From Puniceicoccales bacterium (lineage in GTDB: Bacteria; Verrucomicrobiota; Verrucomicrobiia; Opitutales; JAIRLM01), in the NCBI GenBank assembly GCA_031268315.1, contig JAIRXK010000021.1, positions 8,859-72,858 of the forward strand: DNA of 64,000 nt, written 5' to 3'. The translations under genes and the position numbers were made by a program. Positions within the stretch are counted from its first letter, which is position 1; the number at the start of each line of letters is the position of its first letter. The notes beneath the pieces are model-generated. The model saw only the letters and a list, made by a program, of their open reading frames with translations. It had not been told where the DNA came from and made no database searches. This document shows, piece after piece, positions 47,632-51,943 of the stretch.

Positions 47632-48342
47632 TCAATTGTTCGATATTTTTCCGCCGACATTGCCCCCTTCTTCTACACTTTGAAACAGTAATGCCTCCCA
47701 GCCGGATCTCCTATCGCGGAGTGATGGTTTTACATCATCATTAATCGTTACATTTAATTGGTCAATTGATTTTCCAAATTCTACGATTTCTCCTTTCACT
47801 TCTTCGTCGATACGAGCCCAACTATCATGGCTCTGAATTTTTTCCAAGCGCATCTTTAAAGCGCTACTTTCTTTGTTTAGACTGGTTAATTTTGTTTGAA
47901 GTTGAAAAAGCTCCAGCGCCTTACTGCCATTGGCATAGCTCGCCTTGCGTGTTAGATAGTAGTGCCTTGCAACGGTTATAATCGCTGCCACTACCGCCGA
48001 TATAACTAGGAGAATACCGACGCTCACAGCAATGCCGACGGCAATGTGCATGGACAGTATAAATGCGACCATCGCCGCTGCCGCCGGATGACATACCAAC
48101 GAGATCAACCTGACCACCAATATGGCCACATCAAAAACTACGGAAGTCGCCCACAAAAAAAAGCGGAAATTTGAGCTGGCGCTCTTTCCGCTGATTTTTG
48201 GGATAAACTCAGAAAAAAGAAGCTCCGAGACGGAACACGGATTGCACTCATTATTGGCAGAAAGATCGAAATTTGCATTGACAACATTCTGCATCCCACT
48301 CAATGAGATATTTTCATTATTTAAAATATTTTCTCCTTCCAT
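47632..48342 (-). CDS. Inc-like membrane protein (hydrophobic domain + coiled-coil tail)
   Basis: 236 aa. FFLWATSVVFDVAILVVRLISLVCHPAAAAMVAFILSMHIAVGIAVSVGILLVISAVVAAIITV, followed by LELFQLQTKLTSLNKESSALKMRLEKIQ. Confidence 0.75.
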   Translation of the reverse strand: MEGENILNNENISLSGMQNVVNANFDLSANNECNPCSVSELLFSEFIPKISGKSASSNFRFFLWATSVVFDVAILVVRLISLVCHPAAAAMVAFILSMHIAVGIAVSVGILLVISAVVAAIITVARHYYLTRKASYANGSKALELFQLQTKLTSLNKESSALKMRLEKIQSHDSWARIDEEVKGEIVEFGKSIDQLNVTINDDVKPSLRDRRSGWEALLFQSVEEGGNVGGKISNN

Positions 48343-48347
48343 ATTAC

Positions 48348-48376
48348 ATTTTACGAAAAAACTTAATGAAAATCAA
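48348..48376 (-). promoter_or_regulatory. putative promoter, leaderless geometry
   Basis: The minus strand reads TTGATT (48371-48376), 17 nt, TAAAAT (48348-48353), gtaat, then ATG (48342). Confidence 0.45.
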
Positions 48377-48556
48377 TGTAAAAATAAAAATTTGGCACAT
48401 TTAATGCGAAGTGTCTACGCAGTAGACTGATGCGAAAATTGTTGAAATGAATTCCCCCTGCGCCAATCCCCCACGGCAAAGCAGGCAAGTGCGGCCGCCG
48501 ATGAAACGCCCATTGCCACCGCCAACGCATGTTCGGCGGCCTCCATTTTTGTGCAG

Positions 48557-48702
48557 ATCGCAAAATTATCGAAAAGTTTTTGGGGTAAAATTATCGCGCT
48601 TTCATTCGCCTAGAGCCACATTCTCAGCCATTTGCGCGAGTGTTTTGGCTGTAAATTTAGGACGTTAAACCGGTGAAGAAATTTTGCGATTCGCGTCATT
48701 GA
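48557..48702. repeat. intergenic repeat family, copy B
   Basis: See 4147-4322. Its 3' end overlaps the last codons of the 48665-49468 gene on the opposite strand. Confidence 0.75.
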
Positions 48703-49553: not shown

Positions 49554-49656
49554 TTCAAAAACGCCCCCTCATTGGGACTGCAATCACAAAATTATCGCGC
49601 TTTCGTTCGCCTAGAGCCGCATTCGCAACCATTTACATGGGTGCCTTGGCCGTAAA
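49554..49656. repeat. intergenic repeat family, copy C (lacks the 3' portion seen in copies A and B)
   Basis: ttcaaaaacgccccctcattgggactgcaatcacaaaattatcgcgctttcgttcgcctagagccgcattc... It ends about 30 nt from the 3' end of tRNA-Leu. Confidence 0.75.
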
Positions 49657-49688
49657 GAGAGTAAATGCCCAAGGGAAGTGAACGATTC

Positions 49689-49773
49689 TGGTGCTCAAGA
49701 TGGGACTCGAACCCATATGCCTTCCGGCACACGCCCCTCAAACGTGCGTGTCTACCAATTCCACCACCTGAGC
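49689..49773 (-). tRNA. tRNA-Leu (anticodon GAG), type II with long variable arm, CCA encoded
   Basis: The reverse complement is GCTCAGGTGGTGGAATTGGTAGACACGCACGTTTGAGGGGCGTGTGCCGGAAGGCATATGGGTTCGAGTCCCATCTTGAGCACCA. Acceptor GCTCAGG/CTTGAGC. Anticodon stem CACGT/GCGTG with loop TTGAGGG. T arm ATGGG-TTCGAGT-CCCAT. Confidence 0.88.
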
Positions 49774-49951
49774 ACATCACGCGTCACTTTTGGGGCGATG
49801 TCCCACCGCAACCATTGCGATGATACCCATGCCCCGTTGGACGCCCTTTTGTAGTTTGCAGCATGCGGAATGCAAGGGAAATTTAAAATATTTTTCTGCG
49901 GAGCGAAAAAAAGATTTACATTTGGATTATTTTGTCCATTCTTGGTGTGTA

Positions 49952-51943
49952 ATGGAAGTAGAGAACAGCTGTCCTTCAAAGTTGTCCACCCTCGGTGGGC
50001 AAGAAAATGAGAAATCCATCTCAAATATGAAAATGTGGATCGGCGTAGCTACCGTGGCCGTCGCCATTCTGTGCGTTGCATCGGCCATCGTCGCCTATGT
50101 CACCTGTGCCTCCGTGATCAATTCCGTTGCAATTGCAGTGCTCGTGATCACCGCCGTTTTGACCACCGTGGGGTGCATTGCCCTGCTCATACTGCCAACG
50201 GACAAAAAATCGCAGCAACCTCTGCAGTCGCCTTCCACCCACTCCTCCTCCACTGAGGATTTGCTGAGGAACCTAAAAAATAATCTGCCACCAGTAGAAA
50301 TGTCCAAAAAATTGCCCGATTGTCCACCAAGCCAAGAGGAAAATTCATCCGAAATCCCAGAGAGCGCCACCCCTTCACTCCATGAATACAAGACAGTTTC
50401 TAGCAATACTTTAGAACTCTTAAAACGCTTTGCCCAAGAGGTCTATCCATGCAAAAAAGATCAAAGTGGCATTGCAGGTATTACCAATGATCTTAAATCG
50501 CTCTCAGAAGACGACATTACAGCCTTTTTTGAGAGCCAATTCACAGGAAGCGCGGAGGGAAATACACCGGTCCATTGCCTAATGCTGCTGGTCAATACTG
50601 CCACCAGTAAGGCCTTCGTGGATGCCATAGTTGCATGCGGCGAAAATTCAGCAATTTATGGCTGCTTTTTCAAAGCATTTCTCACGGCACGGAATAACCA
50701 CGGGCTTACCCCCATGGCGTCCCTATGCGGCCATTGCAGAAATCTCGATTTCTTCAAGTGCATGATGAGAAATGCCACCGCACTGATTAAAAATGGCATC
50801 GTAACATCTGAGTGTGTGGTCGACTGCATGGCATGGAATTATGTCGAAGAAATAGTCGCAATAAGCAGCCATGTAAGGGAAACGATATTTTCTATTTTAG
50901 CTTCTAGATACTATTGCTATAAACTCGATGAAGATGAAGATGCGGCATCATTTCTCGATGGGATATACGCCGAAATATTAAACTTCATGGATGCGTTGGG
51001 TACGCCAAGTAATTTAGATCAATTTCTTTCTGAAAAACAAGGCTTTCTCAGTTGCGATCCATCGGTAGTAAAAAATGCCTTAATCTTTGCGGAGAGAAAC
51101 GAGAATAACGGGAAAAAAATTGCCGAAATATTAGGAAAAATAGCGACACTTGAAAACTTACCAAGAACATGTTCTGTGATATTTAGAGCAGCATTTGGTG
51201 ATGCTCCAACGTTCAAGCCCAAAAACTATCGCTTACCTGTGCCCTATCAGCCCCACCGCTCATTCTTCAACAATTTCATTGAAAAATTCATTGCAGCAGT
51301 AGATAAAAAAAGCGAAAAAGAAATCATGCAAATTTTCGCAGAAAAATTCCACGGAGAAACGATCCACGAATGCGTGAAGATGGGTGTCACTACGGCCCCA
51401 TGGACAGAATTAATAGCCGCCGTGAATAAGTGTGGGCAAGAGTCAATCATTTATAAGCACTTTTTCCTTGAATTTATAAGACAAAAGGATCCGTGGTGGG
51501 AAGGGAAGATATTGCACGGCCTAAACATTGATATGTTTGGTGATGTTTTGCTCGCACTGAAAATAATGGCCAAATCAGATCCCCCCAAATCCGAGATAGC
51601 CAGTCTTATGTTCGACTGCAATGAGACGTCATTTTTATCAATCTACATGCACCATCAATTTCCCACTGACCCCAACCGCGTAAAAAAACTCGAAACACTG
51701 CTAGACTTCGCCGGAGAAATTCTATCGGCGGATCAGCTGGAAAATCTTTTGTTTACCTACAAAAGCAATTTCAACATGCCATTTAATTATAATGGTAAAT
51801 TTCTCAACTCGACTGCGTTTTATATGCTGCATTATAAAGGCGGTATTCAACTTAAAAATAAAATCCTTTCGCTCATAGAAAAGACAAGTGAACCCCATAA
51901 AACACGCATGGCGAATGCAATGAAAAATTTAAGCTCCACCTAA
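49952..51943 (+). CDS. Inc-like membrane protein with N-proximal bilobed hydrophobic domain and internally duplicated C-terminal domain
   Basis: WIGVATVAVAILCVASAIVAYVTCASVINSVAIAVLVITAVLTTVGCIALLIL. The start is ATG 49952 or 50027. The ATG at 49790 in the ORF track begins only 17 nt from the tRNA-Leu gene, so I consider it too early. Internal duplication: CGENSAIYGCFFKAFL versus CGQESIIYKHFFLEFI. Confidence 0.75.
   Translation: MEVENSCPSKLSTLGGQENEKSISNMKMWIGVATVAVAILCVASAIVAYVTCASVINSVAIAVLVITAVLTTVGCIALLILPTDKKSQQPLQSPSTHSSSTEDLLRNLKNNLPPVEMSKKLPDCPPSQEENSSEIPESATPSLHEYKTVSSNTLELLKRFAQEVYPCKKDQSGIAGITNDLKSLSEDDITAFFESQFTGSAEGNTPVHCLMLLVNTATSKAFVDAIVACGENSAIYGCFFKAFLTARNNHGLTPMASLCGHCRNLDFFKCMMRNATALIKNGIVTSECVVDCMAWNYVEEIVAISSHVRETIFSILASRYYCYKLDEDEDAASFLDGIYAEILNFMDALGTPSNLDQFLSEKQGFLSCDPSVVKNALIFAERNENNGKKIAEILGKIATLENLPRTCSVIFRAAFGDAPTFKPKNYRLPVPYQPHRSFFNNFIEKFIAAVDKKSEKEIMQIFAEKFHGETIHECVKMGVTTAPWTELIAAVNKCGQESIIYKHFFLEFIRQKDPWWEGKILHGLNIDMFGDVLLALKIMAKSDPPKSEIASLMFDCNETSFLSIYMHHQFPTDPNRVKKLETLLDFAGEILSADQLENLLFTYKSNFNMPFNYNGKFLNSTAFYMLHYKGGIQLKNKILSLIEKTSEPHKTRMANAMKNLSST

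Follow-up and report, generated by a model that had tools for sequence, protein, structure and literature searches.

Chlamydial inclusion-membrane (Inc) proteins are considered an innovation peculiar to the chlamydiae. The published criterion describes them by two transmembrane (TM) helices of 15–32 aa, joined by an uncharged loop of <30 aa rich in P, G, N, S or T, in a protein with no conserved prokaryotic domain (PMC3048545). Here we analyse a stretch of 64,000 nucleotides (the window) from a metagenome-assembled genome (MAG) of a Puniceicoccales bacterium (GCA_031268315.1, contig JAIRXK010000021.1, positions 8,859 to 72,858), in which an initial annotation had called four proteins, I1–I4, Inc-like. 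Part of that reading stands, since the architecture fits the published criterion and the setting resembles an effector island; on the other side, the organism is not a chlamydia and no Inc family matches the proteins. We tentatively read I1–I4 as fast-evolving, hairpin-anchored host-interface proteins that would be exported and would be analogous, not homologous, to Incs, a reading that we regard as possible rather than probable.

I1 (LBI69_02600, 236 aa; 47632..48342) and I2 (LBI69_02605, 267 aa; 48665..49468) are encoded on the minus strand, I3 (LBI69_02615, 663 aa; 49952..51943) and I4 (LBI69_02540, 154 aa; 17945..18409) on the plus strand. All four open reading frames (ORFs) had been proposed at these positions and each proves identical to a deposited gene call. 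A tRNA-Leu gene (anticodon GAG; 49689..49773, minus strand) lies between I2 and I3, so that the cluster is indeed arranged around it. Directly upstream of the I1 start we find a promoter-like site, TTGATT-17-TAAAAT (48348..48376, minus strand; 9/12 matches), and upstream of the I2 ATG a second one, TTGAAA-16-TAGAAT (49480..49507, minus strand; 10/12 matches), both being consensus matches only. The position of the latter favours the I2 ATG at 49468 over a TTG at 49507.

We measured hydropathy with a Kyte-Doolittle scan (19-aa window, threshold 1.6), on which the TM calls given here are based. The results show exactly one long hydrophobic block per I protein and no other TM segment, in agreement with the common architecture claimed for the four: a polar N-terminus of 26–58 aa, one bilobed hydrophobic block of 55–70 aa and a hydrophilic tail. 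In I1, an N/S-rich polar N-terminus (aa 1–58) is followed by a block at aa 59–125 (nt 47968–48168) that dips at CHPAA (aa 84–88), with the caveat that its second lobe (36 aa) might be made up of two short helices. The S/P-rich N-terminus of I2 (aa 1–34) precedes a block at aa 35–103 (nt 49160–49366), which dips at the turn PLIPLLGP, and I3 presents a classic bilobed block at aa 28–82 (nt 50033–50197; dip at TCASVINS) behind a polar N-terminus of 27 aa. I4 has a polar N-terminus (aa 1–54), a block at aa 55–110 (nt 18107–18274) that dips at K81 in the turn AKVA, and a tail of 42 aa. The observed block length was reached in 0/500 residue shuffles of each protein.

Single-sequence AlphaFold2 models present the I3 and I2 blocks as two helices with a break of 2–5 residues (I3, H17–52/H58–80; I2, H35–66/H69–124, with a predicted local distance difference test (pLDDT) score of 70–92 in the TM part). 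Overall confidence is low, with a pLDDT of 59 for I2 and 42 for I3, for which only the secondary structure is usable. Lys or Arg residues stand at both hairpin ends of the I proteins, and the loops are uncharged apart from one Lys in I4. By these hydropathy profiles and helix predictions, I1–I4 are helical-hairpin integral membrane proteins, and the predicted topology places the N-terminus and the long tail together on one face of a single membrane. The intergenic DNA of the window yielded no additional small hairpin ORFs.

The tails differ in kind. A coiled-coil tail had been proposed as a frequent feature, and significant heptad periodicity is present in I1 and I2 but not in I3, while the I4 tail is only 42 aa long. 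The 110-aa tail of I1 carries its heptad-periodic segment at aa 144–171 (reached in 0/300 shuffles), and the I2 tail, which comprises three long helices, is heptad-periodic at aa 190–217 (reached in 1/300 shuffles). In I3, the block is followed by an S/P/E-rich linker of ~70 aa and then by an all-alpha, Cys-rich domain, within which aa ~185–248 align to aa ~454–513 (score 77, null 31 ± 5). The duplicated motif of ~60 aa reads 'SE..I..F...F..G.T...C....V.TA......A...CG..S.IY..FF..F', and the duplication points to a tail in which a single module is present twice. A relation of the I3 tail to the helical-repeat proteins of the window, described below, was considered and rejected, as profile comparison finds none.

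Compared with the elements of the published Inc criterion, the hydropathy profiles, together with the AlphaFold2 helix pairs of I3 and I2, show the two helices, and the loops of I1, I2 and I3 (CHPAA, PLIPLLGP and TCASVINS) lack K, R, D and E, with the single Lys of I4 (AKVA) as the exception. The proteins also lack conserved prokaryotic-function domains and are lineage-restricted, as seen for I3 in large searches and for I1, I2 and I4 from their clusters. I3 found no relative but itself among 5.8 billion proteins in a word-filtered search or among 1.84 billion in an exhaustive search of representatives; I1, I2 and I4 each form a singleton cluster at 90%, with no remote-homolog search made for these three. 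The four proteins share no sequence similarity with one another, and nothing above threshold was found for them in Pfam, NCBIfam, PHROGs, PADLOC or PDB, the weak matches being driven by composition. PDB sequence searches returned noise, the only notable matches being designed helical bundles against the I2 tail, and a Foldseek search of PDB with the I2 model gave generic coiled-coil hairpins only, none at E <= 1e-3. We also considered I3 as a member of a known Inc family and rejected this: its match to the NCBIfam model Chlam_inc_CT214 (E = 2.9e-4) scores 20.1 bits against a cutoff of 90 and covers the TM region only, and it is the sole match to such a family. I1–I4 fall outside the Inc family, since this is defined as chlamydia-specific and by inclusion-membrane localisation and the organism is not a chlamydia.

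As a comparison set we used five loci of related MAGs, covering mnmE/mutS neighbourhoods (~99 kb, 94 genes). These neighbourhoods are rearranged in comparison with the window, and no homolog of any orphan of the window was found in them. Three of the loci, from termite-gut Puniceicoccales MAGs, nevertheless hold an orphan with the same architecture: in L002 (JGI 3300042636), a 505-aa protein (8433–9950) directly upstream of mnmE with a hydrophobic block at aa 47–102; in L004 (JGI 3300042606), a 648-aa protein (14441–16387) whose block at aa 24–82 leads, like that of I3, into a Pro-rich linker; and in L005 (JGI 3300042618), a 119-aa protein (20423–20782) with a block at aa 48–109. These orphans have no Pfam domain and no similarity to I1–I4 or to each other. 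The same architecture in unrelated orphans of three relatives points to a recurrent, sequence-unconstrained class in the clade, and unrelated tails on a recurrent hairpin are the pattern of Incs, which we count in favour of a host-interface role. The proposed co-location of such genes is also seen in the counts, with N-proximal hairpins in 4/27 window genes against 3/94 genes of the relatives (Fisher p = 0.04), or 7/27 against 3/94 when C-terminal anchors are included (Fisher p = 0.001).

The order mnmE-cinA-acetyltransferase-lptF/G is kept in four of the relatives (L002–L005). The window differs at 51985–55639, where the neighbours of mnmE are I3 and, on its opposite side, an M29 peptidase gene and rluD. 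This altered neighbourhood indicates a rearrangement at the border of an island.

The lineage bears directly on how these proteins can be read. The mutS product of the window is MDR1437914.1 (100% identity, on a 111-kb contig), and the name under which MutS and all I proteins are deposited is 'MAG: Puniceicoccales bacterium'. For MutS and MnmE, the next relatives share 56–61% identity, those with a source name being Puniceicoccales MAGs and the others metagenome sequences, and Opitutaceae and Opitutus come next in the ranking at ~50% identity. MutS has no match in the genome contig collection. One relative lies on JAIRWT010000008.1, an accession inside the range JAIRJQ–JAITXW of the termite-gut MAG series of Mies et al. 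2024 (PMC11257099), and the protein accession of the window shares its MDR block with further Puniceicoccales bacterium MAGs, the termite relative among them. On its protein sequences, the organism is a Puniceicoccales/Opitutales verrucomicrobium, a relative of the chlamydiae in the Planctomycetes-Verrucomicrobia-Chlamydiae (PVC) group and not a chlamydia. The bacterium is probably host-associated, and we infer its membership in a clade of termite-gut MAGs with reduced genomes, proposed endosymbionts of gut flagellates. 'Nucleococcus' is counted among the established or putative protist endosymbionts, which are described as having small genomes, lower GC content and a nucleotide transporter.

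Orphan genes occupy 50.3 of the 64 kb (~79%) at a GC content of 0.34–0.47, and I2 has the lowest GC of the window (0.34, with 0.31 at third codon positions). The recognisable core genome amounts to 8.6 kb at a GC content of 0.47–0.57 and comprises an ABC importer, MutS, DprA, MnmE, the M29 peptidase and RluD. A Sec signal peptide is absent from every window orphan, I1–I4 included, and the first 30 residues of the orphans contain more S/T/N/P/Q than the corresponding stretch in core proteins (0.34 vs 0.23, p = 0.005). Taken together, orphan, lower-GC, paralog-rich and Sec-less genes in a lineage for which life inside protist cells has been proposed give the setting the look of an effector-type island.

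A dispersed intergenic repeat of 70–124 nt occurs in three same-orientation copies that are 81–84% identical, where none is expected by chance. One copy (48574..48696) directly adjoins the 3' side of I2 and extends into its last ~10 codons, and another (49587..49656, 84% identity) lies 33 nt 3' of the tRNA-Leu gene, so that these two bracket the I2 gene; the third (4192–4314) is 44 kb away, between unrelated orphans. A terminator-like hairpin (49578–49563, minus strand) adjoins the copy at tRNA-Leu. The repeat has no Rfam family, no significant RNA fold and no match in the metagenome contig collection.

Two further groups of proteins in the window carry hydrophobic segments, at the C-terminus instead of near the N-terminus. 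A double segment in this position had been ascribed to two giant proteins, G1 and G2, and to two helical-repeat proteins. We find it in G1, G2 and the helical-repeat protein at 21359..23557, while the fourth, at 39987..40874, has a single TM segment. G1 (5234 aa; 23961..39665, plus strand) is an orphan without a Sec signal and with a C-terminal bilobed block at aa 5160–5225 (nt 39438–39635). The orphan G2 (2745 aa; 55735..63972, minus strand) has its C-terminal bilobed block at aa 2666–2736 (nt 55765–55977). The two giants are paralogs with 50% identity over ~2400 aa, and their C-terminal anchors, 29% identical, are homologous too. From residue 1064 onward G2 can be aligned to G1, so that the DNA beyond the end of the window may hold the missing N-terminal part. 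Both carry a Walker-A-like motif, QLMGSGKSKALIP (GSGKSK), and an FDEIH motif ('GIFDEIHLT', DExH-like), which suggest an NTPase or helicase core as judged from these short motifs. The giants have no match in Pfam, PDB (profile search) or PADLOC, and scans of genomes and metagenomes, run at low sensitivity with two peptide patterns per scan, found no relatives.

The helical-repeat orphan at 21359..23557 (732 aa, minus strand; C-terminal bilobed block at aa 662–721, nt 21395–21574) belongs to a paralog family together with the ORFs at 39987, 40846 and 43360. Its 295-aa paralog at 39987..40874 (minus strand) ends in the single TM segment of ~30 aa (aa ~264–294, nt 39993–40085). ORFs 39987–40874 and 40846–43278 overlap by 29 nt and, combined, resemble the 732-aa paralog with its N-terminal portion and its TM-bearing C-terminal portion; they may be one gene of ~1100 aa that was split by a frameshift, either through pseudogenisation or through an assembly error. 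Both lie in an operon-like array on the minus strand (39987–47368), in which six co-directional orphans follow each other with 4-nt overlaps or gaps of 3–8 nt and share a recurring helical-repeat motif, '..(I/V)L.ALC..'. I1 is located 263 nt upstream of this co-directional array, which runs from 47368 down to 39987. Weak matches in the family are MgtE_N in 43360–45114 (28 bits, cutoff 25.9) and HEAT/Arm in 21359–23557.

Other orphans of the window are multiplied as well. Five tandem paralogs of 500–903 aa at 1602–13520 (plus strand) share a Ser-rich N-terminus, 'MSxISLxxKN...', a twice-repeated motif with an invariant Cys, 'GFYN..G(I/x)C(S/A)TIAV..G.VYNV', and Q/P-rich low-complexity C-terminal regions. 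In the first of them (1602–4052), a weak domain of the protein tyrosine phosphatase (PTP)/dual-specificity phosphatase (DSP) type is seen at aa 538–639 (Y_phosphatase, 23.7 bits, cutoff 20.9). These sequence features give the set the appearance of an effector family, which may include a cysteine-dependent enzyme domain; a PDB profile search finds nothing for it. Two orphan paralogs, 16823–17362 and 18361–19767 (plus strand, 49% identity over 180 aa), flank I4, and the small island around I4 ends at a tRNA-Lys gene (19828–19902).

We hypothesise that I1–I4 are exported and inserted into a host membrane. The hairpin proteins, the tail-anchored G1 and G2 and the helical-repeat proteins would then form an effector-type island that acts at the interface of symbiont and host. 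Export could proceed by a contact-dependent system, either a secretion system of type III (T3SS), of the kind present in Chlamydiae and Verrucomicrobium spinosum, or a two-step route via the inner membrane, as for hydrophobic effectors of the Legionella type IVB secretion system (T4BSS). The hairpin would subsequently insert the proteins in a membrane derived from the host, leaving the tails exposed to its cytosol or nucleoplasm, where the coiled-coil or alpha-helical tails might bind host factors. The narrower proposal, that an endosymbiont of flagellates deploys its own Inc-like repertoire through a T3SS or another translocator into the host vacuole, nuclear envelope or endoplasmic reticulum membrane, we consider rather unlikely. 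We count the extreme evolutionary turnover, the island context, the polar N-termini, the Inc-type architecture and the probable intracellular lineage in favour of a host-facing role. The polar N-termini of the I proteins, rich in S/T/N/P/Q and without a Sec signal, would be compatible with a type III secretion signal but are unspecific.

Several observations weigh against export to a host membrane. Neither the window nor the relatives' loci contain a gene of a T3SS or of a type IV (T4SS) or type VI (T6SS) secretion system, and the only secretin found in these loci, in L001, is the Amuc_1098-type secretin of type IV pili, although a T3SS is present elsewhere in the phylum, in Verrucomicrobium spinosum. 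The published analysis of the related family UBA9783, gut Opitutales with reduced genomes, reports type IV pili and competence genes but no flagella, makes no mention of 'secretion', and allows for a free-living existence as a scavenger (PMC12306168). Our placement of the bacterium in an endosymbiont clade draws on the 56–61% MutS/MnmE identity and on accession-block proximity, not on a phylogeny, and its life inside a host membrane is an assumption. Even in Chlamydia, a bilobed domain is no guarantee of translocation (Dehoux et al. 2011, PMC3048545). Finally, most TM substrates of T3SS and T4BSS are of intermediate hydrophobicity, which lets them escape the signal recognition particle (SRP) (Krampen et al. 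2018). With the intermediate range taken as an apparent free energy (deltaG_app) of about -1.5 to +0.5 kcal/mol over 12–17 aa, every candidate of the window includes at least one lobe of -1.8 or lower. In hydrophobicity the TM lobes match the inner-membrane TM segments of housekeeping proteins of the same lineage (ABC, MFS, MatE, LptFG and Trp/Tyr permeases), with medians of -2.2 vs -1.6 kcal/mol (p = 0.27), as computed on the additive Hessa 2005 scale with internal controls, and not with the full predictor. IncA itself is similarly hydrophobic. We regard the hydrophobicity result as weak, because it was obtained on the additive scale and because chaperones or a two-step route can override it: strongly hydrophobic effectors with TM domains are still secretable through an inner-membrane intermediate (PMC11602083) or with chaperones (Krampen et al. 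2018).

These points lead to a competing explanation that we consider quite possible, if short of probable, namely that I1–I4 are never exported and that SRP, YidC and Sec insert the hairpins in the bacterium's own inner membrane, where the proteins would have lineage-specific envelope, scaffold or regulatory roles. The N-terminus and tail would then be cytoplasmic and the loop periplasmic, and G1, G2 and the protein at 21359 would be tail-anchored cytoplasmic proteins. The match in hydrophobicity to the permeases of the lineage, a range recognised by SRP, fits this explanation, as do the translocator genes missing from the DNA surveyed and the predicted chlamydial Incs that also stay with the bacteria (PMC3048545). 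The K/R-flanked hairpins and uncharged loops agree with the positive-inside rule for an N-in/C-in protein, yet the Inc topology predicts the same pattern equally. What argues for a host-facing role instead is that membrane proteins of the housekeeping type are normally conserved, whereas no homolog of I1–I4 is found even in sister MAGs with ~60% MutS identity, nor, in the case of I3, among billions of proteins. The genes moreover lie in a lower-GC island among paralog-expanded, giant and eukaryote-like (PTP/DSP) orphans, and a reduced genome is not expected to keep ~50 kb of such genes without host-linked selection.

Two other explanations appear far less probable. The position of the genes beside tRNA-Leu, with I4 near tRNA-Lys, the repeat copies on both sides of the low-GC gene I2 and the weak matches of I3 to a holin family and of I2 to a tape-measure PHROG would be in line with cargo brought by a mobile element, or by what remains of a prophage, integrated at tRNA-Leu, such as holin-like or superinfection-exclusion proteins with no host role. 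We consider this very unlikely: the window contains no integrase, transposase, lysin, phage structural or other phage gene and no PHROG match with an E-value below 1e-4, PADLOC finds nothing, which also leaves a defence system without support, and the weak matches stay under threshold and reflect no more than TM or coiled-coil composition. The third repeat copy, lying 44 kb away between unrelated orphans, suggests a dispersed intergenic element and not an attachment (att) site. Phage holins were examined as a candidate and rejected, since they are smaller than ~150 aa, have a short charged C-terminus and lie beside endolysin or phage genes, while I1–I3 are proteins of 236–663 aa with long tails. 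It seems just as improbable that the genes are decaying or spurious ORFs without function in the fast-evolving DNA of a degenerating genome, a view to which their orphan status, their deviant composition and the probable frameshift split nearby (40846/39987) would lend themselves. Frames of 154–663 codons, and of 2745 and 5234 codons in the giants, cannot arise or persist by chance in DNA of 34–47% GC, G1 and G2 retain their 50% identity and a homologous C-terminal anchor, hydrophobic blocks of 55–70 aa never appeared in shuffles, and promoter-like sites lie directly upstream of I1 and I2.

A full-text literature search found no report of Inc-like proteins in Verrucomicrobia. If the host-interface reading of I1–I4 is true, an Inc-type repertoire in this phylum raises the question whether hairpin-anchored effectors predate the chlamydiae or arose twice. 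The decoration of host membranes by hairpin-anchored, sequence-unrelated effectors would then be a shared and possibly ancestral strategy of PVC bacteria, or else a striking convergence, and the proteins would be the first candidate tools that the almost unstudied protist symbionts of the 'Nucleococcus-cluster'/Opitutales use on their hosts. Irrespective of this, the bilobed criterion alone flags proteins where no T3SS is known, which indicates that Inc predictors need evidence of a secretion system when applied outside Chlamydiae.

Among known systems, effectors of the Dot/Icm T4BSS of Legionella and Coxiella, such as LegC2/C3/C7, resemble the window proteins in combining one or two TM segments with a coiled coil (PMC11602083, PMC6110835). 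They include strongly hydrophobic ones that travel by way of an inner-membrane intermediate, and there are C-terminally anchored examples, to be compared with G1, G2 and the protein at 21359. They differ in that no Dot/Icm or other T4SS gene accompanies the window proteins in the DNA surveyed, and in having no sequence similarity to them. The resemblance to chlamydial Incs (IncA/CT119 and the CT214 family; PMC3048545) extends to the short polar N-terminus without a Sec signal, the single bilobed domain of two TM helices around a short uncharged turn rich in P/G/S/N, the hydrophilic and often alpha-helical or coiled-coil tail with no conservation beyond the hairpin, the clustering of the genes, and a PVC bacterium, here probably host-associated, with a small genome. 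Unlike Incs, the window proteins come from the phylum Verrucomicrobiota, share no sequence homology with them and have no T3SS beside them in the DNA surveyed, and the blocks of I1 and I2 (65–70 aa) are somewhat longer than the classical 40–60 aa. Closest in lineage, the same or a closely related one, are the 'hypothetical membrane-bound proteins' of UBA9783 (PMC12306168) and the orphans of L002, L004 and L005, which likewise combine a hydrophobic block of 56–62 aa near the N-terminus with an unrelated tail and no Pfam domain. The hairpin genes of these relatives, however, stand singly among core genes, whereas those of the window are clustered.

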